DNA of 58,182 nucleotides, counting the filler, from Dimargaris cristalligena (Eukaryota), in assembly GCA_003614675.1 (NCBI GenBank). It is 4 parts of 4 records of this genome, joined end to end, with 100 filler letters (N's around TTAATTAATTAA, not from the genome) between each part and the next. Parts side by side here need not be neighbours in the genome. Positions count along the whole stretch, not along the records: positions 29,183 to 43,638 come from ML002950.1; 3 more parts are not named here. The stretch is one strand, 5' to 3'. Positions 2,433-39,417 of this stretch are shown one piece after another. Position 1 is the stretch's first letter. Each line of letters opens with the position of its first letter. Under the pieces are notes generated by a model. The model had not been told where the DNA came from. It did not search any database and worked only from the letters and a program-made list of their open reading frames with translations. Made by a program: the position numbers and the translations under genes.

Positions 2433-2440
2433 TATAAATA
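2433..2440 (+). promoter_or_regulatory. TATA box, candidate distal promoter of the GSK3 transcript
   Basis: TATAAATA followed by a pyrimidine-rich, ATG-free stretch ending in a GTAAGT donor at 2595. Confidence 0.45.
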
Positions 2441-3720: not shown

Positions 3721-3767
3721 TAGTATTAGTATTAGTATTAGTATTAGTATTAGTATTATTATTATTA
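3721..3767. repeat. (TAGTAT)6 followed by (TAT)n microsatellite
   Basis: Read directly: tagtattagtattagtattagtattagtattagtattattattatta. Confidence 0.9.
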
Positions 3768-14499: not shown

Positions 14500-14599
14500 N
14501 NNNNNNNNNNNNNNNNNNNNNNNNNNNNNNNNNNNNNNNNNNNTTAATTAATTAANNNNNNNNNNNNNNNNNNNNNNNNNNNNNNNNNNNNNNNNNNNN
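14500..14599. other. Artificial contig spacer (N44-TTAATTAATTAA-N44)
   Basis: Palindromic all-frame stop linker between N runs; identical at three positions. Confidence 0.98.
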
Positions 14600-17500
14600 T
14601 TTCGTTGGTAATCAGAATGCCGTCCGCAGATAACTCTGTAGGTAGAGTAATACCTGATGTGGGCAGTTCAATGCTACTTGGATCAGTGGACTGGGCTAGA
14701 GACCAGAGGTGGTTAGCCCACGCTATGTACGAGTGGGTTTTCGGGTCAAGAGGCTGCCCAGTTAAGAAGGCCGAAAGGTCTTCCCGAACAATTTGGACGG
14801 ACAAATAGTCAAAGACCAGGTGGTGCACGGCAATGTAGACGTATTGAACGCCATTTATATCAAAGACCCGAACCTGGGAGATCGGGCCGGTCTCAAAGTT
14901 AATTTGGCGATTAACGCTGCTGAGTTGGGCTAGAGCATCATGGATATCAGTCATTTGGTGGTATCCGAAACCAGTCGACGAAGGGTCATCCAAGTCGGTG
15001 AACTTGATAGCTGTTTCTCCGTCGATAGACAGGAAGCGGGCGCGGAGCATGTCATGACGCTCAACCACCTTGGTCCAGGCGGCCTGCCACTGTTGAGCAG
15101 TAAATCGAGTGCTGGATTCAAACATAGTGGGTAGGGGGTAGTAATGGGGGTCCGCCAATTGTAGGGCAAACAGTTCCAACTGGGGCGGGGTAAGTCGTGC
15201 GGTCCCTGGCTTCGAATCAGTCGCGCCATGGTTATCATCAGAAATCACTTCGATGGAGCCGGAAGAGGCTGGAATCAGTTCGGCGAGGTAAGCAATCGTG
15301 TTGGATCGGTTGATATCAATCAGGTTCAAACGGAGGTTCTGGCGGCGACAGCGGGATACCAACTGAATGGCTGAGAGGGAATTACCACCAACTTGGAAAA
15401 AAGTAGCCGCTGGTGAGATACCACTCGGATCAATTCGGAGGGTTTCAGCAATTAAACCAATGAGCCGGGCTTCGGCTGGACTGGTCTGGATTACCTCATA
15501 GCTGTTATCATTGGCGGTAAAATCGTGTCTGGGCAGGGCCTTGCGATCCACTTTACCCACCCGAGTCAATGGCAATTCGGATAGTTCCACCAGGACGGAC
15601 GGTACCATGTAGTAAGGAAGAAGGGATCGCAAAGAATCCAAGATAGCGGTCACTTGACCATAAGGGGGAACAATGTAGCCGACCAAGTGGCTTTCGTCCT
15701 GGACCACAACACACGCCTGATTCACGACGGAGTGACGTTCTAAGGCACTCTCCACTTCCCCTAGTTCAATCCGGAACCCTCGCAACTTTACCTGGTTATC
15801 GATCCGGCCGAGGCATTCAACTTGACCATTGGGTAGCCAGCGGGCCAGGTCTCCCGACTGGTAGATGCGCTCACCGGTGAATGGACTCAAAATAAACTTC
15901 TCCTCCGTTAGTTCAGGGTGATTGAGATAGCCACGGGCCACACCACGACCGCCTAAGTATAACTGACCTATGGTACCGACCGGGACCGGGCGCATGAAGG
16001 CGTCGAGGATGATACCGGTAGCGTTGGGCAACAGGGTACCGATGGGGATTATGGCCGTGTTGGCCTGGAGTCGAGCCCAGTGGGATCCGATCGCTACTTC
16101 AGTAGGGCCATACCAGTTGATGAGCTCAACCGAGTCGGCCCATTTATTGACAATGCCTTGGCTGGCCGGCTCGCCGGCGACAATAACTTGGTGCAGGTTA
16201 GGGAAATGGGCCGGATCGAAGCTGGAAAGCAGAGAAGGGGTGCAGCAAGCTCGAGTGGCCTGGGCAAGGGCGCCTTCATATTCCCCTTGGGCTACCAGCA
16301 GGGTACCACCGAAGGACAGTGTGGTCCATATCTCGGACAGGGACACATCGAAGGTGGGGGTAACAAGGGTAGGGGTAATGACCCCGGGGGCCATATTCGT
16401 AACACCACTCATGCCCTGCCAGTGGTTGGCTAGAGCGTGATGTTCATGCATGACGCCCTTGGGAATACCGGTCGAACCCGAGGTGTAGATGATTGCGGCC
16501 AAATGCGAGGGATTGATGGTTGGCGATGGATATTCACTAATCGGGCCATCGACAAGTAGCGCGGCAATGCTAATCGGTAGCTTGGTAATATTCAATTCGA
16601 GGCTGGTTAAATTGGAGAGACAGGAAGGTTTGCCTATAATGGCGATCGCTTGTGTGTCTTTCAAAATTAACTGGTGTCGCTCAAGGGGGTAGTCGGGGGC
16701 CAATACCACAAACGCACAGCCGGTCTTCCAAATGGCCAGTTGGCCTATAATAAGTTCCGGGCAGTTGCCAGCGATTAAGGCTACTATCTGGTCGAATTCA
16801 CAGGTTGTTTGTTGGGCTAGTGAGTGGGCTAGTCGATTGGCGGCCATGTCCAATTGGGCGTAGGTGTATTGTTGACCATTATGAGTAAGGGCTGTGAGGC
16901 GAGGGGCACGCTCACATTGTAGTTTGAATAAGTCATGGGCCAGGGCTCGGGGGGTATCGTGTGTATTGGTGGCCCAACTTCCAAGTACTTGTTCGCGTTC
17001 GGGTGAAGTGAGAATCGGGATATCTGTAAGGGAGCTGCTGGAATCCACCGAAAGCAACACCGACAAGGCGGTCATATAATGATCGACAAATAGATTAGCG
17101 AACTCTGGGCTGAAATCGAGTGAACGGTAGGCTACTTGCAATTGCAACAAATCTCCTTGGGTATGCGCAATAACCGCGAGTGGGAAATCCGTGGGATCCC
17201 AGTGGTTATCAAGTTTCATTTGAAATGTACAGTTCGGGTTGTCAGGAGCTTCGGGGTAATTCTCCAGTACCAAAAGGGTGTTAAATAATGGGCGTTCATG
17301 ACTGATACCACTCCAGCGATGGATATCCGTAAGTCGACAGTGTTCAAAGCCATAGGCCTGAGTACTAGTCGCGTGCACGGCCTGCAGGATATCCTGGACT
17401 GATTGACCTTGACCAAGTGCAACCCGACAAGGAATAGTATTGATGCATGCCCCGATGATGCTCTCAACACCCGGCAGGGGAACATTCCGACCCGAGACGA

Positions 17501-20500
17501 CCACACCGAAAATAGGGTCAATGGATCCTGTATGGTGGTGAAGTACCACCGCCATCGTTACTCGTAACAGGGTCGAGAGAGTGACGCCGTGGTTACTAAT
17601 CAGGTCGCTGATCTGTTCCTGAATCTGCGCCGATCGTTTGACTGTCCCATAAAACGCGGCGTCGTTAGGCTGTAAATTTGGGATTAAAGGGCAATGGTGC
17701 GCTTGGACTAATAAGCTGGGTTCGTCAGCCCCAGAGAATTGATGGGCCCAAAAAATTTCCGCATCCCGACTACCGTGTTCCATGATGTGGTCAACGAAGT
17801 CGCGGTATTGCACCGTTCGGGGTAGGGGGTCCTCTGAATAGTTACACTGTACGCTATGGAGTAGCAGCCCGATGGACCAACCGTCTAGTAGAGCGTGATG
17901 GGCAGAGATTAGGAATTTATACATGTTTGGGGCCATCCGGAAAAGTCCAAACCGGATCCAGGGCCGGTCCAATTCGAATCCGGCCGTTCGTTCTTGCAGG
18001 AGGAACTGGTCGCTTAAATCGTCTATTTGGCCCCCTTCCCAGCTTCGAATAAGCCAATGGACATTAAAAGTATCGGCCACGACCTGCAAGTTCTTGTCGC
18101 CATGACATCCACTGGCAGTCAGGAAGCGAGTGCGCAAGATGGAGTGGTCACGGGCCGTTTCTTCCCAGGCCCGGTGGAAGCGGCCGACATTGACTTGACC
18201 TTTGATGGTAAATCCCAATTGGACCATGTAGGCGGCGGGGTCCTGGAGGGTGGCAAATAGTAGGCCTTCCTGAACCGGAAGACAGGGGTAGATATCCTCG
18301 ATATCGGCTAACGCTAAGTCTAATGAGGGCAGGTCATCTTGGACCATCTTGTTAAAATCGGATTCGGTAAGTAGGGCCGAGGAAAAGTCGCTGGCTGTTA
18401 TAATGGATGGTGTGGGAACGGTCTTGCATTCGAGGATGAGCTCCTCAAGAGAGGTACGCCACTGATCAGCCACTTTCTGGATGGTACTCGAGTGGTGTAG
18501 TTCGTTGGAGTACATCACGCTAAGCACTAGTCCATCGTCGGCAGTATAGTCGCAGGCCACACTGAGTGCCCGACCGAAACGTTCATCCTTGTTCCAATCG
18601 TCAGTCCAACCCATTTCTATATGTCGAGGACGCCAAAACGCGTCCTGGGCCTCAAGCTGTTCGAACCTGCCCGAGTAATTGAACGGAATGCGGTGCCATT
18701 CAGCGGAAGGTGTCCCCGAAGTTTCCGAGACATTTCCATCGATGGCATGCGCTGATAGAGGCGAGGAGTTCTTGAGATAGCGCTGAAGACCGTAGGGAAA
18801 GCCGTAGTTGGGAATGGAGCGCATGCGCTGTTTGGCTAATGCCAAGGTGCACAAGTTATGCCCATTGGCCGGGTAGGTCTGTGCCTGGTTCAGGTCAAAC
18901 ACTGCCGGGTAGATGGAGGTAAACCAGCCTACCGTACGACTGATGTCCATAGCCGAGTCCCAGGTCCGGCGGCCATGGCCCTCTAGTTCTAACTCAATTA
19001 CCGAAATTCCTAAAGTCGCTTGTAGAGAGAGAAGGAGAGAGGCTATCAGAAACTCTTGGGGGGAGACTCCTACGGCAGGGGCAACTTCGGTAAATAGGGC
19101 GTCAGACAGAGTGAGGCCAGCTGCTGCCCGCTGGACTTTAAAAGTATGGTAAGTCACTGTGGGGGGAACAGACAGGTCATTCGCAGATGATAGTGGATAG
19201 TCTAGGGGAATCAGATCGGCTGGAGTAGGCGACACTGGCCAGGTGAAGTCGGACAAAGTCTGTGCATAGGCGTGGACTTGAGTAGCCCACTCCCGGAATG
19301 GCATCGTCTTGGCGGGCAGATTTTGGTTTGTGAGCAGGGCTTCCAGGTCTTCGAGAATAATCCGCCAAGAGACAAAATCTACGGCGAAGTGGTGAATAGT
19401 CAGGTAAATATGCTGCTCGCCGTCCAGGGTCAACAAACCACAAACCACTGCAGGGCCCTGTTCAATTGATATCGTGCGCTGTATCTGACTAACCCAAGCG
19501 GGGTATTCGTTGAGGGTAAGTGTGGCTTCTTTGATGGACAAGAACTGGCTTTCCCAGGAGGCCGCGTCAGTGGGTACAGGCAACACCCGTTGATGCCATT
19601 GACCATTGAAACGTTCGAGTCGGATTCGAAGGATATCGTGATGGGCCATTAAGGTGGTGAGAGCCTGCGTAAAAGTGGTACGAGTCAAAGTTCGGCGACA
19701 CTTGAGGAGCATAGACTGGTTGAATTGATTAATGAAGTGGTATTCCTTCAAGGCTAAGCGCTGTACAGCGGTCCATGGGATTGCACCAATTGGGTCCAGA
19801 TAGCGAATAGACGCCAGGTCTTCGGAAACTGTCAAATGAGTATATTGTTCCATGGCTGACAGTCTGGTATGTTTGAGAATATCGGCCACCGAAAGCTGAA
19901 GACCCAGTCGTTTGCAACGGTTGGAAAACTGAATCGCCGAGATCGAGTCACCACCAAGTTGGAGAAATGAGGCATATGGTGTGATCTTCTGAGGATCAAC
20001 CTTGAGGGTATCAGTTAAGGCCTCTCGCATGAGCAAGAATATTGGCGATAAGGATTCGACGTCAATGGCTTCGTCTGTGGTGTCTATTGGTAGCGGCCGA
20101 CCCTGAAGTGCCTTGCGATCGGCCTTGCCCATAGCGGTCGTTGGAATACAGTCCATTGCAACGATAAAATTGGGCACCATATACAGCGGGAGTTTGTTAG
20201 CGAGTTGGGTTTTGAGGGCCACTGGATCAACCGAATTGGGGGTTATATAGAGAACCAGCTGTTGCTTGGTGACACAGGCCACCGCATAGGATACGCCCTC
20301 GACTGAAGAGGCGGTGTTTTCGATTTCACCCAGTTCGATACGATAGCCGCGCAGTTTGACCTGGAAGTCTTTTCGCGAAATGAACTGGATCTTGCCACTG
20401 GAAAGCCAGCAAACTAGGTCACCAGTTCGATACAAGGTACCGGAACCGAGCGGATTCGGAATGAACGATTTAGCAGTGAGCTCCGGCTGTTTCCAGTAAC

Positions 20501-23500
20501 CAGTGCTAACCCCAATACCGCCGATACAGAGTTCTCCAGGGACACCGACGGGAACTGGTTGGAGATGGTCATCGAGCACGTAGCCCTGGGTATTAGATAG
20601 AGGGCGGCCGATAGAAATGGGCTCATCCTCTTTAATTTGATCAGCGTGGGACGCAATGGTTATTTCAACAGGCCCATAAAAGTTGAATAGGCGGACATAT
20701 TTACACCACTGGTGAGCCACATTACCTGAAACGGCCTCTCCTCCTACGAGAACAGTTTTCAAGTTGGGGTAGTCCCCTGGGTCAATGTTCGCCAGCATGG
20801 AAGAAACAAATGTGCAAGTATTAACGCGGACCAACGTATCGGTAATATTACCATCCTGGAGGACCAGGGTGCCACCTGAGTGGAAGGCACCGAATATTCC
20901 GATTAGGCACCCATCAAAGGAAATATTCACGGTCTGTAATATGCGGCTATCCGAATCGAATTTACCTGCTTCGCAGCTACTTATAATGAAGTTAACTAAT
21001 GACTTATGTTGTACGGGCACCCCCTTCGGTCGACCAGTGGTACCCGAGGTGAATACGATGTAGACCAAGTCCGAAGGTATGCGTGTGGTGTCGGGATGAA
21101 ATGTATCAGTGGCAATTATATGGTGATTAATCGTATCGACAAGGCAGCACCGACTTTCTGGATCGTTTATACGTTCCTTAAATAGTTCAAAATACTCAGT
21201 AGTAGTTAGCAACCACGGTTCGTCTAACACACCAAAAGTGTATAGGAGGCGGTCAATAGCGTTGGACACGTCCATTGGAATGCATACACCACCAGCCAAT
21301 AAAGTGGCCAAATAACTGAAAATAAACTCGGCCGAAGTGGAGAAGAGTAGAGCGACATGGGAACCAGGTTTGAATCCGCGTTGCTGAAGGGTCAGGGCGA
21401 TACAGCATGCTCGATGGTACACCTCGGCATAGGTGAATTGTTGATTCGAGGTCTCAAGGGCAATGGCCTCAGGCCTGGAGGGAACGTGCTGGCTGAACAG
21501 CTGATAAGCCAGCCAATGCTGCTGAGGAGACTTGCGGATGGGCCCCTGTGTCCAGTCGTGTATGAGCCGGGCCTCGTCGGTGGGCAAAACCATAAGCTCA
21601 CGTAGGACAGACGTCGGGCGAGTGACCATCCTTGACAGGCAGTGGTCCATGAATTGAACCAAGTAGTGGGCATACGTAGCGTCACAATGGGCTGTTTTAA
21701 AGAGGAGACTACAATCCAGTGCTCCTCCATTATCAGTACAACTAACAGTGTAGGCATACTCGGTAAAATTCTGGCTATGGTGAAGCTTGAGGGCAATTTC
21801 TGGGTTAGTAGTGTTAATCATGGATGGTGGGATGTTGTCGTATACAATAAGGGAATCAAAGAGCTTGTCGTCTGGGTTAACTCGGCCCCATTTGCAGATA
21901 TCTAGGAGGTTGCATTGTTCAACCCCCGTTAGATCCCCGGACTGACGATGCAGATGTTGGACGAAATCCGCGACTGACGTATCAAACTCAAGAGACGCCC
22001 GGAACGGCAAGGTATTGATGCACATTCCTACCATACCATCAATACCAGCCACGGGGACATTGCGACCGGAAGTCAAGACCCCGAAAGTAACTTCGTCGGC
22101 CTCGTTGAGGTATCGCGCTAGGGTGAGGGCCCAGACACCACGCAGCAGGGAATTGAGAGTAATCTGCTGTTCTCGACAAAACGTGCTTAGGGTCGGGAGG
22201 GAAGTTGAAAAGGTGAATTCATGCGTATCATATTCGCATAAAGAATTCCCTTTTTTATGTGTGGCGAACTGGACAACGGGAGTAGGTTTGACCCCATCGA
22301 GATTACACTCCCAGAACTTCTGCAACTGAGGCTGACCAAGCGACTTCAGATGTTGTATGTACCCTGTAAATTGTGTTGCCAGAACGGGGAGAGCATCGTG
22401 ATACAAATCAACCAATTCGGTCAGGATGATATTCTGAGACCAAGCATCAAGTAAGGCGTGGTGAAAGGTAAGGAACCCCAGTGTTTGTTTAGAATCGGAG
22501 GCTGACGAGGTATAGAGGCTGATCCGCAATAGTGGTCCATTAAAGGCAAATCCGCGCTGGCGATCCGCAGAAAAATATTCCTTCTCGATTTGTGGCCAAT
22601 TATTGTGAGATGTCTCTGTATGGACCGACCATTCGATATCACAGCTATCAGTAACAACCTGAAGGAAGGTATGCTCGGGTATAGTGCGAGGTTGGATAAA
22701 TTTGGTTCGCAGAATGTCGTGCTGTTGGGCCATCTGATACCACGCCCGCTGGAGACGGTTAACGTCGAGTGGTCCCGAGATAACGAATGATTCCTGAACC
22801 ATGTACGCACTCGGATCCTTAATAGTACTGACCAGGAATCCTTGCTGTAAGCTGGAAACAGGCAGGATGTCGGTGATGTTTGTAGGGCCAATACTCAGCT
22901 GCGAGACGGCTTCTTGAAGCAATGTTTCCACAATCGTGGACGCTAAGTCACCATCGCCCACGAGAGAGAAGGGTTGGTAGCCAAGGAGTGAATAGGAGTC
23001 CTGTGACTGATTAACCGAACCTTGCTCGGCAACACAGTTAGCCAACTCGGCGAGATTAGAACACTTGAATATTTGGGTGATGGACACACGGACGCCGTAA
23101 TCTCGACATAGTGAAGAAAAGCGAATAGCTGAAATGGAGTCACCGCCCAATTGAAAAAACGAGTCGTACATATCAATGTCCTTAGTAGGAATTTCAAGGG
23201 TTTGGCTTAGGGCCTCCACAATGCGGGCTTCAGTCGTATTGCGGGGACTAGTGATCGAGCGGTCACTGGATATAGCGGTTTTTTGGGTAAGAAGGCTAAT
23301 CAAGGCACGCTTATCGGTCTTGCCGTTGGTGGTGGTGGGTAAATTTTTGAGGGCAAAAAGGGCATGGGGTATCATGTATGGAGGCAGATGGCTAGTCGAG
23401 TGGGACTTGAGGGGACCAACTGGTACTGATTCTGGACTAACGAAGCCGTAGAGTTTACCAGAATCAATGACTACCGCAGCGTTCTGGACTTCGGGGAAGC

Positions 23501-26500
23501 CAAGTAGTACTGTCTCAATTTCCTGGGGCTCAACCCGATGACCACGGATTTTGACCTGGTCGTCCCGACGGGCAAAGTATTCAACGGTACCATTAGGGAG
23601 CCAGCGCCCAGTGTCACCCGTGCGGTAAAGATAACCTTGGCCAGTAAAAGAATTGGGCAACAGACGCTCACGGGTAAGTTCGGGTAGATCGACATAGCCT
23701 CGGGTAACACAGATGCCACCCACATAAATTTCGCCGGGGACCCCAAGGGGCACAGGCCGCAAGTGGCGATCCAGAATGTAGCACTCGGTGTTTGGAACGG
23801 GGTGGCCGATTGTAACAGGTTCACCTGGCCGAATTTCTACAGCGTGGCAAACAAAACACTCCGTGGGGCCATACATATTAAACACGCGGCAGTAATAGGC
23901 CCAGCGTTCAGCCACTTGGCGGGGCAAGGCCTCTCCCGCGGCAATAATCATCTTAAGGCCAGGGTACTTGCTAGGATCCAAGGAAGCCAGTACAGTCGGA
24001 GTAGCCACCAAGGCATCCACCCGGGGCAGGGTATCTAGGATGTCGGTACGCAGGACAAGCGTAGCCCCTTTGCACAAACTAGTGAAGATCTCCAAAAAAG
24101 CGCAATCAAATGTCAGAGCCATATTTTGCATCAGGCGCAATCCAGCAGTAATACCAATGGTTGATTCATCTTGCTGGACAAAGTTGGCCATGACCCGGTG
24201 CTCCAACTGAACACCCTTGGGCTGACCCGTAGTCCCTGACGTATACAGGATGTGGGACAGGTCGGTGGGGCGAACATTGGGAAGAGTGGGCAATTCGGCA
24301 CAGGGAATGTTGGAGGGTAAGAGCCATGGGTCAATGGTCCGGAATTCCACATGAGGGAGGGCCTGCCGAATATCATCAAGTCGGACCTGGTCAGCCGTAT
24401 TAGTTAAAATTAACCGAATACCACAGTCATCCACCATATAACGTATACGGTCGCTGGGGAAAGCGGGGTCAATCGGTACAATAGAAGCGCCGGCCAAACC
24501 GACGCCCATGTAGGCTGCGATAGTGCTGGGAACCCGGTCGATAATGAGGCCAATGGGGGTTTCCCGTTTAATCCCTTGTAGCAGTAAGCGGTGGGCCAGG
24601 TTCGCAGACCGGGTATGTAGGTTTTCATAGGTCCATAGCAAGTCGCCAAACTCAACCGCGGTGGTATCTGGAACCGCCTGGGCCGTCCGAGTGAATAGTT
24701 CAGGTACACAGACCTCAAAACCAATGGCTAGGTGGGGGCTGGTAAACTGCTTGGTAACTAGAGCAGTTTCACTCGTGGAGAGCATTATAAGGTCTTCGGT
24801 GAATACATGCCCATCTGGATTAGTCAAGGCGGAGACCAGGCCAGAAAAGAGTGTGGTGAGGTGGCGCGACAAGGCCTCCATAGAGCACCGATCAAACACA
24901 GACGCACTCCAGTTCAAATTCGCCGTGAGTTGCCCGCCTTCCACTTGGACAATGACGGCCAGGGGGTAGTCAGTTGATTCCAAAAAGTTCGTGTCCGTAA
25001 ATGTAACTGAGTGTACCAGACTATCCAAGCCAGTGTCGGGGTAGTTTTCGTACACTAGCAATGTGTTGAACATATCACTTGGGCGAACCTCGGCATTAAC
25101 CCATTCATTGATCTTGGATAAATGCAAGTGCTCAAAGGGTACCATTTTATGGGAGCTTTGGTGTATCATCGTGACAAGTTCGATGACTGACATTTCTGGT
25201 TTTAACGGGACTCGGAAAGGCACAGTGTTGATGAAGCAGCCCAGATGAGACTCGATATCAGGAAGGGGTAGGGCACGCCCGGAAACGGTGTTACCAAATA
25301 CTACTTCGGTATGGTCAGTGTATCGACTTAGTAGGAGGGACCAGGCAGCCTTGATGAGAGTGTACGGCGTAATTCCTGTTTGGCGAGCCACTTTACTTAT
25401 GTGCCCGGCATCGGGGAACAACGTAAACAGAAAATCGGCTTTGCGAGAGTCAGGAGTGCTAGGTGGCTTTGGTAAGTACAACTCAGTGGGGTGTTCTACA
25501 CCTCGCAGATACTCTTGCCAGAACGACTCGGCCCCTGTGTTGTCTGAATTATGAATAAAGGACACGTAGTCATGGAACGAAGTGGTCGGGCTGGTTATTT
25601 GTTCAGGATTCCTTTGGAGATGGGCGCGAAGCTGGTCTAATAGAATTCCGAAGGACCAGCCATCAACGAGCGTATGATGGATGGTTAAGAGGTAGCGGAA
25701 CGAGTTGGGGGCCAGTTGCTTAACGTATATCCGCAGGAGCGGCTCATTCGGTTTGAACCCCTGGGCCAGGTTTACCTGTAGGAAGTCATTTTCACAAACA
25801 GCACCTAGATCCACCCACTCGTTAATCGAATGCCAACCTAACCGCGGCTCTCGGGAAACTACCTGAACACCCTGGCAGTGGGGATTACTCCAAGACGTTA
25901 AAAACACAGTACGCAGAATGGCATGTCGGCTGATTACGGCCCGAGTGGCCGTCTCAAGCTGGTCGACGGTTGATACTCCGGTAACGGTAAAAGCCAGCTG
26001 AACCAGGTATTCGGAGGGATCCTTGGCCGTGGCCGTCCACATGCCCTGTTGCATGGGCAACATGGGGTAGAGGTCTTCAACGTCGTATGGAGTAAGGCCA
26101 ATGGTGCCGAGCTCAGATTCAAGTTTGGCTAGATCCGGTAGAGTGGCCTGTAGGTCAGGGAAATCCGACGGGGTCCATAATGAGATTCTAGAGGACTGCT
26201 TGGTATCCTGCACCATACCGATAAGGGAGTCACGGAAGAAACCCAAGAGTGATTCAACTATGCCTGTTGCTATGACCTGGGGACAAAAGTGGACCATGAA
26301 CCTTATACCCTCGGGAGTTGGATAACCAATGATTTCCACTAATTGTGTACGGAGCTCGTCAGCATCACAAACCACCACATCAGAAGTTAGTTCAGGACGA
26401 GGGGACCATGGGGCACGGCCATGTTGGGTCAGTGTACTGTGGTCCACTGTGTGCCCTAGATAATTGAATACGACCTCCATCGGCAAGTAGGGCCGGTTTT

Positions 26501-29082
26501 TGGAGGCTACGGCCTCAGAGTGGTTTACTATTCTCTGGAGACCATACTGCAGCCCATTGGTGCCATTCGACGAACGGAGGGCCTGTTTGGCCAGTTTAAG
26601 GAAATCCGTGCTCGATGTGCTAGCGTCAGCCTGAACCTGGCAGGGTACTAGAGCGGTAAACCAGCCCACGGTTTGGCTGGGGTCAAGGCTGGTGTCCCAC
26701 GAATGACGACCATGGGATTCATTGAAAATCGTGATAGTTGACGCTTGGGTCAGAGAGTACAGGGCCCGGAATAGACCAGCAAACATCAGTTCGAGAGGCT
26801 GGATAAGTCGAGCATCAACCCCCAGAATGATATCTGAGTGGATTTTATCCAAGGTGATCGACAAACTCTCCGAATTACCTTGGGTATTATATGCCCAGGT
26901 ATCGGAACCAGTGAGGAGTAAAAACGATGGTATAGGAGCCGATGATTGTTTAGCCACAGTTGAGGATTCTTTAGCCCAATCAACCAATTCGGTCGCCCAA
27001 GTTGCAAAAGAGGTATGCTGTTCTATTGGCTGCTGGCCGTCTATAATACGGGCCAAGTCTTCCAATAAAATTGACCAGGACACTAGATCCACTGCTAGGT
27101 GATGGATTGTCAAGAATAGCAGCTGCCGGGGGGATGACTGGGATGGAACCATGGGGTAAGAGCCTGAATCATTTGGGATGTTGGCATTGCAATCTATGAC
27201 GGTAACGAGACCCGCAGCCAAGTGGTGGCCCTGGGAGATATCCATCGAAGACTGGATCGATATGAACTGACTGGGGCAGTCAGACAGAGGGACGATTGCT
27301 TCTACCAGGGGAATGGGTAGACTGGTAAATGGAGGTAGTATAGATTGGGTCCACTGGCTGGGGGAATTAGACTCGTTCTTGGTGAACTGACAGCGCAATA
27401 TGTCGTGGTGGTTGACTAAACGAAGAAGAGCGCTTTCAATCTGAAGAGCAGATAATGGTCGGGTCAATTCAAGGGCAAACGACTGGTTGAAGTGATTGGG
27501 GTTGCGCCAGGGATGGTCAAAGAACCATAGCTGAACTGGGGTGAGCGGGAAGGGGGTCTGGTATTGAATCGGCTGATGTAAACTATTATGACCTATGGTA
27601 GGGCTGATGGCTTTCATATTGCCAACCACATCGTACAATGTTTTTGACCCCAGTATCTTGGAGGTAGGTAGAGTAAACCCAAGTTGGCGACACTTCGACG
27701 AAACTTGAATAGCCAATATTGAGTCACCACCGAGTTTAACGAACGACAACTGCAAATTTATCTGATCGAGGGCTAGGCCAAGTACGCCAGTCAGTGCTTG
27801 GGTTAGGACTTCCGCTGCCTGGCTTGACGAGACTGGCGCCGAGTCGGATAATGGTACCTGCCTCCGCTGGGTAGCTAAATACTGGGTGAAATGTCCTAAA
27901 ATAAATTTGGAATCACACTTCCCGTTGGCGGTGAGGGGCACTGTGGGTAGACCCACAAAATAACTGGGTACCATATATGATGGCAAACTATCGGCTACGG
28001 CAATATGCAGTGCATCATAATTGGCGGCGGATTCAGGAAATACATAGCCGACCAAGAACTGGTCATGGATAAAGACGACGCAGTTCTGGACTCCGGGTTG
28101 ACGTATCAAGACGCTACGGATCTCATCTAATTCTATACGGAAGCCCCGGAGTTTAATCTGACTATCCATGCGCCCCAGGCATTCAACTTGACCGTTGATT
28201 AACCAGCGACCCAAATCACCGGTGCGGTAGAGTTTACCCCGGCCAGTGAAGGGGTTGTCAATAAACGTGGTGAGATTTAGATCGGGCCGGTTAATGTACC
28301 CGCAGCTGACCCCGACACCACCAATAAAGATTTCGCCAATGGCCCCGGTGGGTACCAGCTGCAGCTGATTATCCAGAATATAGCACTCGTAATTGGGAAT
28401 CGGAGGGCCAATGGGGATTGTACCAGTGGGTGGGACGCGGGTAAAATGGCTGATAATAGTAGTCTCGGTTGGCCCATAGCCATTGTAGATATCAGGAATG
28501 ATCGACCATTTGTCAACCAACTCGCGGCTGAGTGGCTCGCCCGCTAGGCATAGTTTTTTGAGATTGGGGTAGTCAGAGGGGTTCAGCCGGTTGATGACCG
28601 ACGGTACTAACCAGGTTTGATCTACGTGACGCAGAGTTTCAGGTAGGTTGTCCCCGTAGAACACCAGCGTCGACCCATTGCACAAAGGAAGGAGGGAGTT
28701 AAGGATAAACACGTCGAACCCTGGTGCAGTTCCCGCCATGACACGCTGACCGGATACTTGGAGGTCTTGGAAGACAGGATTGCCAACCTGGTGATCGAGG
28801 TTATTATGGGTGACCATCACCCCCTTGGGCAAACCGGTTGAGCCTGAAGTGAAAATAATGTAAGCCAGGTCGCCAGGGCGACTATTGTAAATGTCGGACC
28901 TGTTGCCAAAATCGCCATTACCCTCTAGAAAGTCAGACAGGACTAGGGTATTAGGCAACTGACTAGGCGAGCCAGTGGCGTTCAGTACAATCGTGCAACT
29001 AGCTGCCTCGATAATATACTTCTGGCGCTTCACCGGTAGCTTATAGTCTACGGGCACGTATACGGCCCCCACAACCCAAGCC
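14600..29082 (-). CDS. Multimodular nonribosomal peptide synthetase fragment, A1-T1-E1-C-A2-T2-C-A3-T3-E3-C-A4-T4-E4(partial), about 4,830 aa, no start or stop in the contig
   Basis: Four A domains ((Y/F)TSG(S/T)TGxPKG near 28850, 24240, 21045, 16480; YGP(T/V)E; YRTGD/YQSGD; G(F/H/Y)R(I/V)E). Four carrier motifs (GGDSI near 27725, 23140, 19950; GGNSL near 15385). Three C domains (HHxLxD(G/A)WS near 25670, 22450, 17890). E domains with HHLAVDLVSW/ESHGR/VGWFT (27100), HHFAVDFVSW/EGHGR/RTVGWFT (19385) and HHLVFDYLS (14815). The ORF-track stop at 14544 is the linker. Confidence 0.97.
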
Positions 29083-29182
29083 NNNNNNNNNNNNNNNNNN
29101 NNNNNNNNNNNNNNNNNNNNNNNNNNTTAATTAATTAANNNNNNNNNNNNNNNNNNNNNNNNNNNNNNNNNNNNNNNNNNNN
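29083..29182. other. Artificial contig spacer
   Basis: N run - TTAATTAATTAA - N run. Confidence 0.98.
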
Positions 29183-30008: not shown

Positions 30009-30276
30009 GTTGAGATTCCTCGCGTGCAATCACGACGCGCAACCCTTCTCTTGACCAACGCGGTGCTATATGCAGAGATAGATCGTGGCGGCGTATGTGC
30101 GTGAACGGGCGGGAGAGAAAAGACGACGCGGGAAGTAGAAAAGAAGAGAAACGATCGCGGGGTGGCGCGAACCAGCCAACTGATAACCAACCAGCCAAGC
30201 GTGTTCCTTCATCGCAACTGTTGCTGCGCTTGCTGCTGCTGTTGCTGCTGTTGCTCCCTTCTACTATTGCCACACG

Positions 30277-33092
<2,816 letters not shown>

Positions 33093-34541
33093 CGGGCCGC
33101 TACTGCTGCGCACAACTGCTACTAGAATCGATTAAAGCATTAATAACACATAGCTTTATTGTCAAATAATGTACATTGTCATCAAGCAGAGATGTCACCA
33201 TTGTCAATGCCGATAGAAGAGAACAAACAGACCGCCCGCCCTTGGAGCGATGCGCCAGTCCAGTGGCACGAGCGATCCCGTCTCCAAGCGCATGTGGCAG
33301 ATGAGGCGGAGCAATGCCGCGTGGCCATGCGCACAGTGAGGCATCCTCCTCGCGACGACGACACTGGCATGGCCATGATGCGCGGAGAACGGGCTCCTAA
33401 TACCTGCTAGTAAGTGCAGATATTCATCATGGCCACTGGTCGCGTCTCTGCAGACATGGCCAGCACGAGCAGAGCACCTGCTAAGCCCATTCTCGCCACT
33501 CATAGCCGCCACCCGATGCGCCCATCATCGGCGAGAATCGCCACACGGCCACCAGACGAGCAACATCCCATTTGCGTTGCCTTCCCCCCTCACACACAAC
33601 AGCATGCCCCCCACGCAGCACATCCGCCCATGTAGGGCGACGCGCACACCAAGCAGTCCTGCACAGCGCCCATGTCGTCGAGGTGTCTTTGAGTGTGGTA
33701 TGCAGTTTAGCGACCGGTCAAAGACTCTGCACGCTATTACAGAGCCTAATACCGCTGGCGGGCCACACACTCATCGGTATGCGGCGCCACCATCGGCCAG
33801 CTATAGGCACCGTAGAAACACCGGTCATGCCATGCACCGCACGACGGGCACGACGAAATAGCCGCGCAAGCATCGCAGTGGACAGGCCGCCAGCATGTCG
33901 CCAGTCCATCGGCACCATCTGCCACCACGGATGTTGGCACGCCATGCCACTTGAACGCCTGCCACGCAGACAGCCATCCCAAAGCACGCAATTTCCCCTA
34001 TGCGGCCGGTAGACAGCTGCCGCCAACAGCCGTCCAAGGGGGGCAGTAGCGCACCAGCATCCATGGACGCGACCGGCACGACAGCAGCAGCGCTATCCAC
34101 GCTTTGTTTGCGCGGTTGGATTAGGGTTAAGTTGAAGACGTGCGTCTTCAAAGACAGACATGGACTAGCGTGCAGGACGCTCAAGGTCAACAGGAGCGGA
34201 CGCACCGCGCAGGAAGCCGCAAATGCCAAAGACGAGCGGGTTTGCTTCTAAGAGCACACGCGTGCCATACAATACGCAGATGGTATGGCACCGACCGTAA
34301 TGGTGGTTGATTTACCCAGCCAGCGCTGGCGAACGCGTCATTCGACAAACACGCACGCACATACACGAGTAACTGGGAGAGAAGAGGCATAGAGAGCAGA
34401 TGTGCGCGAACGCGCCAGGAAGAAAGCTCTATACGAATAGGGCGGAGGCAGTTTTTGTTTGCAAGTTTTGCGGCGAATAAACACATCGACAGGCAATGCA
34501 GCAGGTAGAGTATGGTCAACATCATCACACATGCATGCGTG

Positions 34542-34547
34542 TTTATT
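34542..34547 (-). terminator. AATAAA polyadenylation signal of the micro-exon gene
   Basis: Plus-strand TTTATT about 235 nt downstream of the TAA at 34781. Confidence 0.5.
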
Positions 34548-34609
34548 CATATGGTGTATATGGTCAAAGATGGACGGGGCACCACATACAGCATTGCATT
34601 CATGTAATG

Positions 34610-34633
34610 GATGATGATGATGATGATGATGAT
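34610..34633. repeat. (GAT)8 microsatellite
   Basis: Read directly. Confidence 0.85.
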
Positions 34634-34780
34634 GGAGAAGTAGATGGTAGACTTGCACCGAGTGATGATGGTGGTGGCAGCTTGAATGGCATGGACAGCA
34701 ACGAAGGGACTTGCTTGCTCCAATGGACCACGATATCATTGTCGTCTCGGATGTCTATCCTGTCTACTTGATGCCTTGGT

Positions 34781-36322
34781 TTAATCGAAAACTAATTGCA
34801 CATGGTTAGACTTGCTTACATCATCATTCTATGGTTACTTACGGCCTATCATTGCATCATCGACCGATAAATGGGTAGGTGATTGCATTGTTAGCTTGTT
34901 GGATAATCTGCGCATATTAGCAGGCTTACATTCTATCCACAGCATTATCATATAATGAGCAATATAGAATGGAATGGTATATGCTGGCTTACTGGCTATT
35001 CATACAATACGGCCACATATTGGCGAATGTCCCATCACGGTCAGTGCATCAAGTGGCACATGGCCAGCATAATGACTTACTGACTATTCACGGCAATGGC
35101 CGCATACAGATCGAATATTGCACTCCAGTCAGCATATCGGACAAGGCGCCCCATGTAGTAACTTACGGCCTGCTCGCATGATAATCGCGCATACAGCAGA
35201 TGGTCAGTCAGCTGCATTATTGCACTGAGCCATACTGCTAGTGCATCTGCTTACATTCTTTCCACGGCAATCAATGGTTACATAGTTCATCTCGATTAGT
35301 GCATCGCATGGAATGGTATGTGCCATTGCTTACGAGCTATTCGCAAAGCAATCGAATATAAAATGAGCATTACATGGCTATCAGCACGATGAACGAAATG
35401 GCGTGTGCAGCAACTTACAGTCTATTCGCATAGTAGTCATGCGTGGATTGGGCATCGTGCGCCAGTCAGTTCATGCATCGGATGCAATGATCTATTGTTG
35501 GCTTACCATTTTCTCCTACATCATCATATGCATGGCATCGCAGTCAGTACGCTGCACACGGCAATGTGTACATCGACTTACCGCCTATTTGCAATGTGGA
35601 TGCATGAAATGATATTCCAGCATGATTAGCACGCATCAAATGGGACTACTGAACGCTTGCTTACAGTCTATTACCACGTGTTCCCCTACAGTTAGTGTGC
35701 TGCACAGAGTAAACAAACGAAGTCTTACCATCTATTGCCAGGGATTGAGGATGGTCAGTACAATGAATAGAATGCTACATGGATAGTTACTTACTCACTG
35801 CATCCATAGGATAATCACACAGGATCAGTGGACTGTATGGAGTGATCTATGTGGCCACTTACTGCCTGCTCGTCAAGCACAATGTGATCAGTAGATTGAG
35901 TGGTATGGCATGTACAGCTACTTACAAACTGTTCATATAGAGTAGCCACACATGGAGTAATCGACTGTTATTGATGCATCCATTGTGCTTGCATGTGCAA
36001 TGGTTTACCATCTATTCACATGGATTGATTAGTATTGCATCATATAAACTTTATGCAGCTAGCCTACCAACTATTCGCAAACGATTACGTATGTATTGAA
36101 TATTCCATCATAGTCAGCACGCTGGTCAGCACGATGTTGTTGCGGGCTTACGATCTAGCACAATAAAAAAGCATATAATGATCAGGCATTCCATCATCGC
36201 TGCTCCTATTATGTTGACATACCAACACGGCGGACCAAGGCAGGCTTCGCTTCGACGGTGGCCAGGCTAGCAACGGCGACAACGACGACGGCGACAATGG
36301 CAATGGCAGTGGAGACCTTCAT
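34781..36322 (-). CDS. Micro-exon gene for a 56-aa secreted Cys-hairpin prepropeptide; 20 exons in transcript order: 36322-36223, 36154-36152, 36070-36068, 36011-36009, 35928-35926, 35865-35863, 35797-35795, 35731-35729, 35667-35665, 35584-35582, 35515-35507, 35421-35419, 35336-35334, 35257-35255, 35169-35167, 35083-35081, 34995-34993, 34932-34930, 34845-34843, 34791-34781
   Basis: Nineteen consecutive 51-85 nt GT-AG introns (16 with GTAAG donors, most with a CTRAY branch site). Joining the exons gives a stop-free frame: MKVSTAIAIVAVVVVAVASLATVEAKPALVRRVDLDVCMNDCGENDSQCLTKCLFD*. Confidence 0.92.
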
Positions 36323-36489
36323 GGTGACAGTAGGATGGCAGACTAGTGGACTGGACAAGCAGGCAGGATATAGAGTATCAACAATAGTGGTACTAGCAGT
36401 AGACAGCAGACAGTAGACAGTAGACAGTAGTGAGCAGAGAGGGCGAGTGAGTATGAGGATGGCTGGTTGCCGTGACAAATGGTGGTTTA

Positions 36490-36495
36490 TTTATA
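36490..36495 (-). promoter_or_regulatory. TATA box of the micro-exon gene
   Basis: Minus-strand GATATAAATAAA about 170 nt upstream of the ATG at 36322. Confidence 0.55.
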
Positions 36496-38350
36496 TCTGG
36501 AAGCGAGACAGTAGAATAATTTGCGCAACATGTCTGAGGAGGAGAGGACATGGATGACGAATGCGAGTCAGACAGGTGTTCGGCATGAATGAAGTGGGCG
36601 GACTGGTCTTGCATGAAGAAGCAAGTCCCATCTGCTTGCGGGCAAGACATCCATCATGCAGCGATGGACCAGTCAGCATACTTGCACATGGCAGTATCGT
36701 CCATTGTACGCGTCAGCATCATTCTGGTGAGTGGGCACCAATCAGGCTGCATCTATTACCCAATGTGTCTGCTGTGTCGCCCATATGACCTAACACCATG
36801 CCAACTGCTGTGCGAGCGCAGTCTAGCTTGCCTCCGACTGAATACTTGCTGGCGAGCACAGCAATGGGCATGAAGCTGGCGGATCAGTCAAGCTGCCCTT
36901 GTATGGCATTGCCGCATAGGAACACATCATCATCACCATCATGCTGCCCAGCATCCATTCGACTGCACGTATACGCACATTCCATGATGATGATGATCCA
37001 GCACATTCTGGCTGACTGGTGCATGCATAGAGCATTGTCCAGCAATGGATGGTGACAAGCACAGGCAAGAAGCAGAAGCAGAAGCAGCGGCCAATGGAAT
37101 ACTAATCCATGCCTGTGTATGTGCATTCAAGCTGAGGCAGCGTCGGCACGAATGGCCATAGAAGAAAGAGACAGCAAGCGTGGAGCGAGAGTATGGAAAA
37201 CAAGGTCACCGCGGCAGCTGACGAGGAAGGATGCCGATGGCGGACGACGTTTGCACCAATGGCGCGCCGTGACCGTTAGAGTGCCCGAGTAGCAATGACG
37301 ACATGTACCAATCATTGCATAGCCGCCAACTAGCTTGTCCCACCGCCATTTGAGATGCATGACAGGCCAAGCCCGTTCGGCATTCGATGGTAGGCAATCC
37401 GATGTAAAAGGGGAAGAGGAAAGGAGGCATTGCCACAGCAGACGGCCTTCCTGCGGCCTTCCGGCAACGACAACAACAGCGAGCATGCATTGCACTGTAA
37501 TCCACCATCGATGGTAGCACTAGTGGCAGCAGTAGCTCCGCCATTGAAAACCTGTTCGAACGGCGTGCCATGTCGTCCATGACATACGTCGCTGGCTGCC
37601 ATGACGCCACCATGCCATAGAGCCGGCCGTCAATCCGTGTTCGTCGCCGAGAAGGCCGCTCGCCCGTCTGCACTGCTGCCAATCACCCATGCCATGCCAT
37701 GCCATGCAGCGACCGTCATCGACGAGGCGTTGGCTGCATCAGGCAGTGCCAAACAGATGTTGGTGCATCCGCTGCTGTCCTCGCTCTCTGCGTGGCATAT
37801 GACCACCCTCCATCGAGCATCATGTAAGCGTGATTCGTCAAACTTGAAACGCGTCTTCCGCACACCCGCACATCCACATCCACATCCACACACACACGCC
37901 CTTCGCGGAGGGAGGCTGCATCTCCGTTGCTTGGGCGCCCGAATTCACATGGACACGACGGCCTTATGGCCGGTTCCGCCCAAGCTTCCAGGAGAAGCGC
38001 CTGTTCTGTTCGCCTAATTTGGAACCATTTGAAGAATGGTGCTGCTGCTGCTGCTGCTGCCGTTGCTGCTCTGGCATGACTTGTGACCGCTTTTAACGCC
38101 ACGCACCGCTCGTCGTTATTTAACGGCCACCACACGCACGCTATCCGTTTCCGTAGCATTGCCATCGCGTTTCGTATCACATTTGCCGCTGCTGTTGCCG
38201 TTTTGTTTTATTGTTATTGTTATCCTCCTTCTTGCTAGCCGTGCCATTGACGACAACAACAGTCTTGTTCCATAGTTTTGTCTGGTCCCGACATTCATCG
38301 CGCCTACATCCTAGCTGGCACATTTGCAGCATTAGTCATTGCCTACTAGC

Positions 38351-39417
38351 ATGAATTATTTTCTTCAGGACGTTGCCCAGCTGGTGGCGCCTTCAGCGGG
38401 CGCCTATGCTCTTCTGCACGTCTTCGCCAAGGCCTGCCTCATACCACTGCTGGGGAAGCAGCGCCGCATCAAGCAGCTCTCTCTTTCGGATCGTATTAAT
38501 CTCGATGGATTGTAAGTACATACATGCAAGTATACTGGCGTAGACATGTCTAGCCATTCTTCCTCCCTGCCATGGCTGCTAACACGCGTGTCTGTCTATT
38601 TTCCCTTCTTCCCTGCAGGACATCGTCAACGGTGCACGCCATACGCACCGGCATCGGCGCTATCCGCCTCATCATGGTGTTGCAAGCATGGTCGCATGAC
38701 ACCCTCCATCCTTATCCCGACGAGGCACGCAATCTGCTCGCCGAGCATGCTGGCTACACACTCTACGACCTGGCGGCCATGAGCATGCAGTCGTACCAGC
38801 AGAACGCCATGTGGACACACCACGGCCTGGGCATCGCGGGATCGCTCGCGATGCTTTATTTCCGACGCGCCTCCTTCTACCCCATCGCCTTCCTTGCCAC
38901 CGAGATGACCGTGCCCATCGTCAACGGCCTCTGGCTGCTCGACAACGTGCTCGTCGGCAAGAAGGCCCGCTACCAGGGCCGCGCCGGCCAGATCCGCATG
39001 GTGCTGCTTTGGCTGCGCGCCATCGCCTTCGTCGTGTTCCGCCTGGCGATCGGCCCGCTCGCGCTATGGTACGGCATGACCCGGTCGAGCGTGGCGCACA
39101 CATCGACGCCCGCCGATATCGCCGGCGCCCTCGAGGCCAGTTCGTCGATGCTTGCCTCGGGATCGGTCGGTTCGCTCGGCGCGCCTTCCCTCGGCAAGGG
39201 CCACGCGCTCGAGCTTGTCGGCCTGCCGGTGTCGGCATCGCCGTCGTGGAAGACGTTCTGGCAGCGGATGTTCCAGCTTCCCGTGCCCGTCTGGTCCGGC
39301 ACCATGGTCAATCTGCTTGTGTTCTCGGTGCTGAACGTCCTCTGGACCCGTGGCGCTGTCCGGGCGCTGCAGCGTGAATGGCTCCGCTACCGGATGGCGT
39401 CGTCGATGTCTTGCTAG
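38351..39417 (+). CDS. TLC (TRAM/LAG1/CLN8)-domain membrane protein, TMEM56/TLCD-like, 319 aa; exons 38351-38511 and 38619-39417
   Basis: SSTVHA, GYTLYDL, THHGLG, TEMTVPIVN, FVVFRL and LNVLW match the TLC pattern. A phase-2 intron at 38512-38618 (GTAAGT..GCTAAC..CAG) supplies an N-terminal TM exon. Confidence 0.85.

Follow-up and report, generated by a model that had tools for sequence, protein, structure and literature searches.

A predicted small gene of an early-diverging fungus that appears to encode a secreted four-cysteine peptide through 3-nt exons

Features of the locus

The window, that is the whole stretch of 58,182 bases that was analysed, carries on its minus strand, from 36322 to 34781, what appears from the sequence to be a small fungal gene encoding a secreted four-Cys peptide by way of 3-nt exons. 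The earlier note had described a train of plus-strand motifs at this point and had read each as a 3-nt exon of the other strand, placed between an acceptor and the next donor. Both position and reading hold; 14 of the 16 matches to CTTAC-NNN-CTR in the window fall within 34838-36157. Dinucleotide shuffling of the window (n=100) gave a mean of 2.17 matches and a maximum of 6, against the 16 seen. The stricter pattern GTAAG-gap-ATAG-NNN-GTAAG-gap-ATAG-NNN-GTAAG has 6 matches, every one of them inside the locus, and none in 100 shuffles. A looser whole-intron expression (donor, CTRAY, YAG) matches 27 times in the window on both strands together, with 15 of these matches lying within the 1.4 kb of the train.

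Joining the exons by their coordinates reproduced the exon count that had been claimed, with a 100-nt exon 1, 17 micro-exons of 3 nt, one of 9 nt and an 11-nt end. The 19 introns, the 171 coding nt, the phase 1 end of exon 1 and the translation were likewise identical to the earlier claim, and the TATA box and AATAAA are both present on the minus strand. The features of the predicted gene, in order of transcription, are as follows.

36488..36495, minus: TATA box, 173 nt upstream of the ATG
36223..36322, minus: predicted exon 1, coding part of 100 nt, with ATG, signal peptide and a short pro-region with dibasic end; ends in phase 1, donor GTATGT next
34792..36222, minus: span of the 19 predicted introns (51-85 nt, mean 72) and 18 micro-exons, read from splice-signal counts and AG-free zones
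36152..36154, minus: predicted micro-exon 2, 3 nt
36068..36070, minus: predicted micro-exon 3, 3 nt, donor GTAGG
36009..36011, minus: predicted micro-exon 4, 3 nt, donor GTAAA; next intron without a CTRAY match
35926..35928, minus: predicted micro-exon 5, 3 nt
35863..35865, minus: predicted micro-exon 6, 3 nt, with a tandem AG-N-AG acceptor that makes a 6-nt form possible
35795..35797, minus: predicted micro-exon 7, 3 nt; the triplet is a stop when taken in phase 0 but none in phase 1
35729..35731, minus: predicted micro-exon 8, 3 nt
35665..35667, minus: predicted micro-exon 9, 3 nt
35582..35584, minus: predicted micro-exon 10, 3 nt
35507..35515, minus: predicted micro-exon 11, 9 nt; use of a further AG located 3 nt inside would leave 6 nt and keep the frame
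35419..35421, minus: predicted micro-exon 12, 3 nt
35334..35336, minus: predicted micro-exon 13, 3 nt
35255..35257, minus: predicted micro-exon 14, 3 nt, acceptor AAG
35167..35169, minus: predicted micro-exon 15, 3 nt, tandem AG-N-AG acceptor
35081..35083, minus: predicted micro-exon 16, 3 nt
34993..34995, minus: predicted micro-exon 17, 3 nt
34930..34932, minus: predicted micro-exon 18, 3 nt
34843..34845, minus: predicted micro-exon 19, 3 nt
34781..34791, minus: predicted last exon, coding start of 11 nt with the stop codon at its end; continues as 3' UTR
34542..34547, minus: AATAAA, 234 nt past the stop codon

The locus stands isolated between unrelated genes, in the interval from the DEAD-box helicase gene to the TLC gene. 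Pfam matches in the window are limited to NRPS, VPS13, kinase, TLC, WD40 and DEAD-box, a scan in which the short ORFs of 33100-38500 were not taken individually. The neighbouring genes match Syncephalis and Dimargaris, both early-diverging fungi, most closely. On the opposite strand the locus is crossed by no ORF longer than 96 aa, and 33100-38500 holds none of more than 168 aa. A search of both strands of 34300-36800 against Rfam (E up to 1) gave no matches. Tandem Repeats Finder (minimum score 30) reported only simple repeats, all of them short and located in the UTRs or exon 1, and no period of 50-90 nt.

Splice signals and the predicted peptide

The 19 candidate introns carry strong and uniform signals. 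All 19 donors have GT and an A at position 3, and 17 read GTAAG; all 19 acceptors have AG, with a pyrimidine at -3 in 18. A CTRAY motif is present in 17 of the 19, and in 16 it starts 34-38 nt from the donor; intron 4 is the one without a match and intron 17 has a near match only. The segment between the branch A and the acceptor is strongly depleted of AG, with 6 in 548 nt over the 18 introns with a branch motif as against 29.0 +/- 4.1 in shuffles; a count of 6 or fewer was reached in none of 5000 shuffles. Four of these six exceptional AGs follow the branch A at a distance of no more than 5 nt and the other two are tandem acceptors. Upstream of the branch the count is 27 AG in 527 nt, where 30.1 are expected.

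The intron bodies, in contrast to these signals, are close to random with respect to one another (identity 0.545, against 0.489 when shuffled). This near-shuffled identity, together with the missing tandem period, means that the splice signals have been retained while the rest has drifted. An AG-poor stretch from branch to acceptor within near-random intron bodies indicates long selection for splicing at the 19 introns.

Of the three ways to read the 171 nt, only the phase that exon 1 dictates gives an open frame; the other two contain stops. A stop-free frame alone occurs in 0.32-0.42 of shuffles and is weak evidence; a stop-free frame with at least four Cys occurs in 0.0004-0.0016 of them, and 20,000 shuffles never gave the twin C-x3-C pattern, which bears out the earlier statement that frame and four-Cys motif are unlikely to arise by chance. 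As had also been noted, all four Cys codons are split by an intron into one base and two. The use of a weak alternative donor 4 nt upstream, which would place the train in phase 0, was considered and rejected; it meets the stop at micro-exon 7 and gives no sensible product.

The predicted precursor of 56 residues consists of a signal peptide, a short pro-piece with a dibasic end and a 24-residue acidic peptide with the spacing C-x3-C-x6-C-x3-C. In exon 1 a start codon can be read, followed by a hydrophobic core and by small residues that form a cleavage motif. The signal peptide and the pro-region with dibasic end, both read as motifs in the translation, may be like those of Kex2-processed secreted fungal peptides. 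The arrangement C-x3-C, loop, C-x3-C may be that of the twin C-x3-C helical-hairpin peptides, in which two disulfides join the arms across the hairpin; judged from its spacing, the mature peptide is probably a secreted two-disulfide helical hairpin. When the 44-aa in-frame stretch around exon 1 was searched against a collection of 5.8 billion protein clusters, two word-sharing candidates were returned and none aligned at E up to 10.

Trains of 3-nt exons in other genomes

The earlier note knew of no fungal gene made almost wholly of consecutive 3-nt exons. Its gene model, in which micro-exons read in phase 1 specify a four-Cys peptide for secretion, is supported by the AG-free zone, the strong donors, the fixed branch position and the Cys pattern; the supposed want of a fungal precedent did not survive. 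According to papers that cite Iotti et al. (2012, Fungal Biol 116:261), dozens of 3-bp mini-exons occur in the Tuber melanosporum ‘nank’ superfamily (NACHT-ANK NLR), and trains of the same kind were found here in metagenome contigs. As those papers describe it, the likeness is a long run of consecutive 3-bp exons between short canonical introns, and an architecture of this type had thus already been published for truffle NACHT-ANK immune-receptor genes, in the literature found for these alone. The window gene has the same two properties, since its 17 exons of 3 nt and one of 9 nt form a single run and its introns are short (51-85 nt) and canonical (GT/AG in 19 of 19, CTRAY in 17 of 19). Three points set it apart from the truffle case: its source is an early-diverging fungus and not a Pezizomycete, it would encode a secreted precursor of 56 residues with no NACHT or ankyrin part in the gene model, and its codons are split across exons in phase 1.

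A scan of metagenome contigs gave 118 loci, among them 47 variable trains with 690 triplets. These triplets, read as whole codons in phase 0, include 8 stops where 36-38 are expected, a count of 8 or fewer being reached in none of 2000 shuffles. The trains make up 20 sequence families on 38 contigs, and the variable ones sit in genes of the NACHT-ANK and HET kinds and in a single signal-peptide gene. An instance of the Tuber nank type (L069) has ORFs with PNP_UDP, NACHT, winged-helix and ankyrin matches, followed by a 29-unit train and then an ankyrin exon. Young arrays are recognisable among the loci by introns that are 78-99% identical, whereas the introns of the window gene are old and mutually unlike. 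Neither blastn with the locus (E up to 1e-3) nor megablast with the whole window gave a match to the 118 loci, a NACHT-ANK array among them.

Only one of the 118 loci, L106, has a signal-peptide exon before its train, among trains of at least 4 units of which many are cut by contig ends. L106 has a TATA-like box and an exon with signal peptide and a pro-piece with dibasic end, then, directly, at least 11 exons of 3 nt, and so matches the window gene in its plan. It differs in being in phase 0, in its young introns (~86% identical) and in residues that are Pro/Gly-rich, not Cys-rich; its contig ends inside the array and its sequence is not similar to that of the window.

Two other systems can be compared. 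According to the available parts of PMC10526429 and 10.1101/2023.06.21.545858, micro-exon genes (MEGs) have a longer signal-peptide first exon followed by symmetric exons of 3-81 bp, in multiples of three, and introns of up to 5 kb. As described there, the MEGs of schistosomes and tapeworms resemble the window gene in encoding a secreted protein with a signal-peptide exon and symmetric micro-exons for most of the mature part, but their introns are long as against 51-85 nt in the window. MEG exons are mostly longer than 3 nt. The lineages, platyhelminth and fungus, are unrelated and homology is not expected. In Coprinopsis cinerea, long-read cDNA confirms 27 exons of 3 nt in 26 genes (PMC12230235, as far as its text was available), and a fungal spliceosome can therefore handle such exons; in the same portion of that report they number at most two per gene, lie in ordinary genes and form no peptide-encoding train. 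The literature on trains of 3-nt exons that was found comprises the truffle case, the flatworm MEGs and isolated micro-exons; among the papers listed there was no secreted fungal peptide gene built in this way, which cannot show absence.

Alternative explanations and a possible mechanism

Taking these observations together, we consider it likely that the locus is a real, spliced and protein-coding gene of an early-diverging fungus that specifies the secreted 56-residue precursor, with splicing read from the DNA. Points against this are the want of a match for its N-terminus among the protein clusters, the weakness of a stop-free frame as evidence, the phase 1 of the window train where the metagenome trains are read in phase 0, the missing CTRAY of intron 4 with the near match of intron 17, and branch-to-acceptor distances of up to 45 nt. 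One alternative is that the motif train is a matter of chance, or what is left of a minisatellite, and that nothing is spliced here. It is extremely unlikely, given the clustering of 14 of the 16 window matches in 1.4 kb where 2.17 are expected window-wide, and the 6 triple-pattern matches where shuffles have none; a satellite would moreover leave unexplained an AG depletion that is directional and confined to the segment from branch to acceptor, and no tandem repeat is detectable. It could also be argued that the transcript is spliced but non-coding, or serves as an intron host for small RNAs, with triplets that have no coding meaning, since the strongest statistics concern splicing and not coding and the open frame alone is common in shuffles. 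This too is very improbable, because the signal peptide of exon 1 is of textbook form and is in frame with a peptide whose twin C-x3-C pattern was never met in 20,000 shuffles, and stop avoidance is clear in the triplets of related trains elsewhere. The empty Rfam search on both strands, the want of conservation of intron bodies between units and the intron length of 51-85 nt, short for snoRNA hosts, also speak against it, and the idea of a snoRNA host is not supported.

That the gene is dead or dying, a once-functional micro-exon array which has lost its expression, would agree with the failure to match any protein record and with its position alone between unrelated genes. Decay would strike the signals as well as the intron bodies, and only a very recent death is therefore compatible with near-random bodies among which GT/AG is intact in 19 of 19, GTAAG in 17 of 19, and the AG-free zone and open frame are kept; we regard this as quite unlikely. 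Alternatively, the transcript may be spliced without the full 19-intron product being the main one, through skipping of blocks of exons (in the extreme from exon 1 to the last exon) or use of tandem acceptors, to yield a mixture of peptides or a signal-peptide stub. As the lengths of all micro-exons are divisible by three, any skip stays in frame, including that from exon 1 to the last exon; there are three tandem AG-N-AG acceptors (micro-exons 6, 11 and 15), and the truffle mini-exons are described as alternatively spliced in papers citing Iotti et al. (2012). Against this, each Cys codon takes one base from the end of an exon and two from the start of the exon after it, so that skipping ruins the Cys pattern, and full signals with AG-free zones in 19 introns would be needless if the exons were usually skipped. 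Skipping as the main outcome is thus unlikely, if less so than the loss of the gene.

If the gene is expressed in full, as we prefer to read it, transcription from the TATA promoter would give a pre-mRNA of ~1.9 kb from which the 19 short introns would be taken out by intron definition. Exons of 3 nt are useless for splice-site recognition and every intron must therefore carry all the signals itself: here a GTAAG(Y) donor with hardly a deviation, a branch site of the form CTRAY ~35 nt from that donor, and an AG-free run that makes the next AG encountered the acceptor. As that acceptor lies only 3 nt from the next donor, adjacent introns are probably not bound simultaneously and would be removed successively, one by one and most simply in the order of transcription. 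The precursor could then be cut at its dibasic site by a Kex2-type protease, and the product may serve a mycoparasite as a signal, as an antimicrobial or as a peptide directed at its host. The array may have originated by tandem duplication of a unit of an intron plus three bases, of the kind seen in young arrays elsewhere; here it would be old, with its intron bodies randomised and its splice signals and frame kept.

If spliced as read, this is the most extreme compact case of one codon per exon that was found, with 19 introns for 171 coding bases and all Cys codons split by introns. An intron-definition spliceosome would have to cope with splice sites 3 nt apart, many times in succession, which would make the gene a natural substrate for studies of splicing order, and the mini-exon phenomenon of truffle NLRs would extend to an early-diverging lineage and to a peptide that is secreted. 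The window gene and the metagenome trains between them suggest a whole class of genes that is invisible to gene predictors and read aligners. We would put at slightly below an even chance the broader proposal that one-codon exon trains are no peculiarity of truffles but an old means, spread across the fungi, of making and diversifying short stretches of protein, from zygomycete-grade fungi to Dikarya, in secreted peptides as well as the non-self-recognition proteins of NACHT-ANK and HET genes, and systematically absent from annotations. On that proposal a short intron plus three bases duplicates in tandem and each time adds a codon, the homologous introns allow in-frame unequal exchange and exon skipping, and some trains, that of the window among them, become frozen by selection into secreted peptide genes. 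Young arrays may likewise offer a possible route for the codon-by-codon growth of coding sequence.

The flanking DEAD-box helicase gene has six candidate introns of 47-83 nt, picked by eye, whose branch and acceptor motifs are as at the locus. GTAAG is used in 17 of the 19 introns of the locus as against 1 of these 6 (one-sided hypergeometric ~0.002), a comparison that is indicative only, since the helicase introns were chosen by eye. The distance from branch to acceptor in the locus is up to 45 nt, which is long for short fungal introns.

Anatomy and setting of the proposed micro-exon gene

The minus strand of 34500-36700 was read for a gene model, and joining the pieces by their coordinates directly established the anatomy; the exons, introns, coding length and translation proposed in the earlier note for a candidate secreted four-cysteine peptide gene (36322-34781) were all regained, as were its TATA box and AATAAA. 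The features, in transcript order, are:

173 nt upstream of the ATG, minus: TATA box, read in the sequence
36322-36223, minus: exon 1, 100 nt, ending in phase 1 (codons split across micro-exons)
after exon 1, minus: 17 micro-exons of 3 nt and one of 9 nt
34791-34781, minus: last coding piece
234 nt downstream of the stop, minus: AATAAA, read in the sequence

This gives 19 introns for 171 coding nt, and all four cysteine codons are divided by an intron, with one base on one side and two on the other. The locus is crossed by no plus-strand ORF above 96 aa and has no Rfam match at E up to 1. The presumed UTRs hold short simple repeats: about five copies of a 7-nt unit on the 5' side (36397-36438) and eight copies of a trinucleotide on the 3' side (34610-34634).

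Neighbouring genes in the window encode an NRPS, a DEAD-box helicase, a TLC-domain protein, a WD40 protein, a kinase and VPS13. For the TLC protein, identity is 66-72% with Syncephalis proteins and 89%, across 59% of its length, with a partial protein of Dimargaris cristalligena; these matches place the window in an early-diverging, zygomycete-grade fungus. The intron-free NRPS ORF (14544-29126, minus; 4860 aa) is separated by 5.6 kb from the micro-exon gene, shows no evident link with it, and by Pfam carries seven condensation, four adenylation and four carrier stretches. The helicase gene (30187-33092, plus), which encodes a C-terminal zinc knuckle, is split by very short introns, whose donors vary, into some twelve or more short exons; by contrast, the adjoining NRPS and VPS13 ORFs are giants that run uninterrupted for thousands of codons.

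Splice signals and the case against chance

The motif train is confirmed as the earlier note described it. The window contains 16 plus-strand copies of CTTAC-NNN-CTR, 14 of them within 34838-36157; comparable trains in shuffled sequence, which that note would have counted against the gene, did not appear, 100 dinucleotide-preserving shuffles giving a mean of 2.17 matches and a maximum of 6. A three-unit pattern (GTAAG, gap, ATAG-NNN-GTAAG, gap, ATAG-NNN-GTAAG) matched six times, always at this locus, and never in 100 shuffles. A pattern for a whole short intron (donor, CTRAY, YAG), applied to both strands, gave 27 matches in the window, of which the locus holds 15. Tandem Repeats Finder reported no 50-90-nt period in the locus.

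Splice signals in the introns of the micro-exon gene (minus strand; 51-85 nt, mean 72)
GTA start: 19/19
GTAAG start: 17/19
AG end: 19/19
Pyrimidine at -3: 18/19
CTRAY match: 17/19 (intron 17 has a near match, intron 4 none)
CTRAY beginning 34-38 nt from the donor: 16/19

The strongest evidence for splicing selection on the introns is an AG exclusion zone which, like the signal statistics, was directly established. Across the 18 introns that have a branch motif, AG is found 6 times in the 548 nt from branch A to acceptor, against 29.0 +/- 4.1 in shuffled sequence (six or fewer in 0/5000 shuffles), whereas the 527 nt from donor to branch hold 27 against 30.1 expected. Of the six exceptions, four are no more than 5 nt from the branch A and two are tandem acceptors. 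Identity between intron bodies is scarcely above random (0.545, against 0.489 shuffled). Intact signals in an otherwise randomised remainder fit long purifying selection on splicing and are not what chance or a satellite would give; either origin is therefore very improbable.

The distance from donor to branch is nearly fixed across 34792-36222 (minus), at 34-38 nt, and that from branch to acceptor ranges from 14 to 45 nt; usual fungal introns show the reverse pattern. The near-constancy could be a trace of an ancestral repeat unit or a need of splicing around 3-nt exons. In the helicase gene, six candidate introns chosen by eye measure 47-83 nt; they carry CTRAY and YAG, but their donors vary, GTAAG beginning one of the six against 17/19 in the micro-exon gene (one-sided p ~0.002, calculated by hand). 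This contrast agrees with the idea that 3-nt exons cannot aid U1 pairing and that the donor bases within the intron must therefore be optimal.

Intron definition would govern splicing of the pre-mRNA, with each 3-nt exon made unambiguous by strong donors inside the introns and by scanning tracts free of AG. Since an acceptor and the next donor are 3 nt apart, adjacent introns would probably leave in turn rather than simultaneously.

Coding evidence and predicted product

The frame entered from exon 1, also directly established, is the only open one, the other two containing stops. An open frame by itself is weak coding evidence, as it arises in 0.32-0.42 of shuffles; the earlier note's stop-free frame with four cysteines is nonetheless unlikely by chance, since 0.0004-0.0016 of shuffles combine an open frame with four or more cysteines, and 0/20,000 show the twin C-x3-C spacing. 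Exon 1 opens with a start codon and goes on to a hydrophobic core, a cleavage motif of small residues and a short pro-piece whose last two residues are arginines; from these motifs a putative signal peptide and Kex2-type processing to a 24-residue acidic peptide are predicted. Translation of the mRNA would yield a precursor of 56 residues, and its cleavage would release a secreted peptide containing two disulfides.

On these sequence statistics the gene model is well supported and probably correct. The splicing might be less complete than modelled, with blocks of micro-exons skipped or a mixture of isoforms produced, which we regard as unlikely; a recently dead gene is somewhat less likely again, and a spliced non-coding host RNA, to be set against the cysteine statistics, is less likely than either. 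The array may have arisen by tandem duplication of a unit of intron plus three bases, as in young arrays, and would here be old.

Arrays in metagenome contigs and in print

Of the side results, the breadth of such arrays in a metagenome sample is the most interesting. Contigs scanned with the three-unit pattern gave at least 118 stretches; the pattern demands ATAG acceptors and GTAAG donors, so these are a sample and not a census. None has sequence similarity to the window. Defining a train as at least six AG-NNN-GTRNG units spaced 40-115 nt apart, there are at least 64, of which at least 47 are variable (at least four different triplets; at least 38 loci) and at least 17 have near-constant triplets. 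Read as whole codons, the 690 triplets of 47 variable trains contain 8 stops, 5 of them in a single locus, against 36.5 expected from position-specific composition and 38.5 from within-train column shuffles (8 or fewer in 0/2000); moving the frame by one or two bases gives 25 and 71. This stop avoidance means that the triplets are read as codons, and for that the intervening units must be spliced out. The variable trains form at least 20 sequence families, in most of which adjacent intron units are 78-99% identical and the triplets differ.

L036: at least 78 units, then a short terminal exon with a stop
L069:2415-8092(+): NLR-type gene; PNP_UDP, NACHT, winged-helix and ankyrin ORFs, a 29-unit train of 3-nt exons, then an ankyrin exon
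L048:1438-3561(+), L076:426-1750(+), L031:4113-5283(+): train immediately before a HET-domain exon
L106: signal-peptide exon with a dibasic end, leading directly into at least 11 micro-exons, the same plan as the micro-exon gene

The L048 exon is 78% identical to Sordariales HET proteins; ahead of the conserved part, the annotated N-termini of these proteins are variable and short. A second NACHT-ankyrin ORF lies in L069 at 10726-13119.

The earlier note knew of no fungal gene made almost wholly of consecutive 3-nt exons, but there is a precedent in print: papers citing Iotti et al. 2012 describe, for the NACHT-ANK superfamily of Tuber melanosporum, dozens of codon-sized, alternatively spliced 3-bp mini-exons, a description with which L069 agrees. 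In Coprinopsis, long-read cDNA verified 3-nt exons, 27 of them spread over 26 genes (PMC12230235), and flatworm MEGs are described as encoding secreted proteins by symmetric 3-81-bp exons with long introns (PMC10526429, 10.1101/2023.06.21.545858). Among the literature matches listed, neither a secreted fungal peptide gene of 3-nt exons nor a 3-nt-exon array outside Tuber was found. The array architecture is therefore already known; the micro-exon gene differs from the published case in product, lineage, codon phase and array age.

Long trains, with near-identical 60-75-nt introns and varying triplets, include L036:14-5709(+), L118 (minus strand) 1319-6304, L068 (minus strand) 4-2069 and L006:1000-2826(+). 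The largest family has a 66-nt intron and recurs in at least nine contigs, which suggests that an intron unit spreads from gene to gene or that a gene family is expanding. Trains of 14-45 units with a period of ~72 nt and a constant triplet (L005:15-3180(+), L079:6881-9209(+), L023:2017-3838(+), L049 and L021) are either plain satellites with chance splice-like motifs or one-codon exons for a homopolymer. The locus with five stop triplets in phase 0 (each triplet a whole codon), L107 (minus strand) 1403-2067, has nine units and is free of stops in both remaining phases. It may be a further split-codon array resembling the micro-exon gene, or AT-rich DNA may have produced the train by chance. 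Finally, L018:12-657 carries the same train and triplets on both strands at nearly equal coordinates, which points to an inverted duplication or a fold-back assembly artefact.
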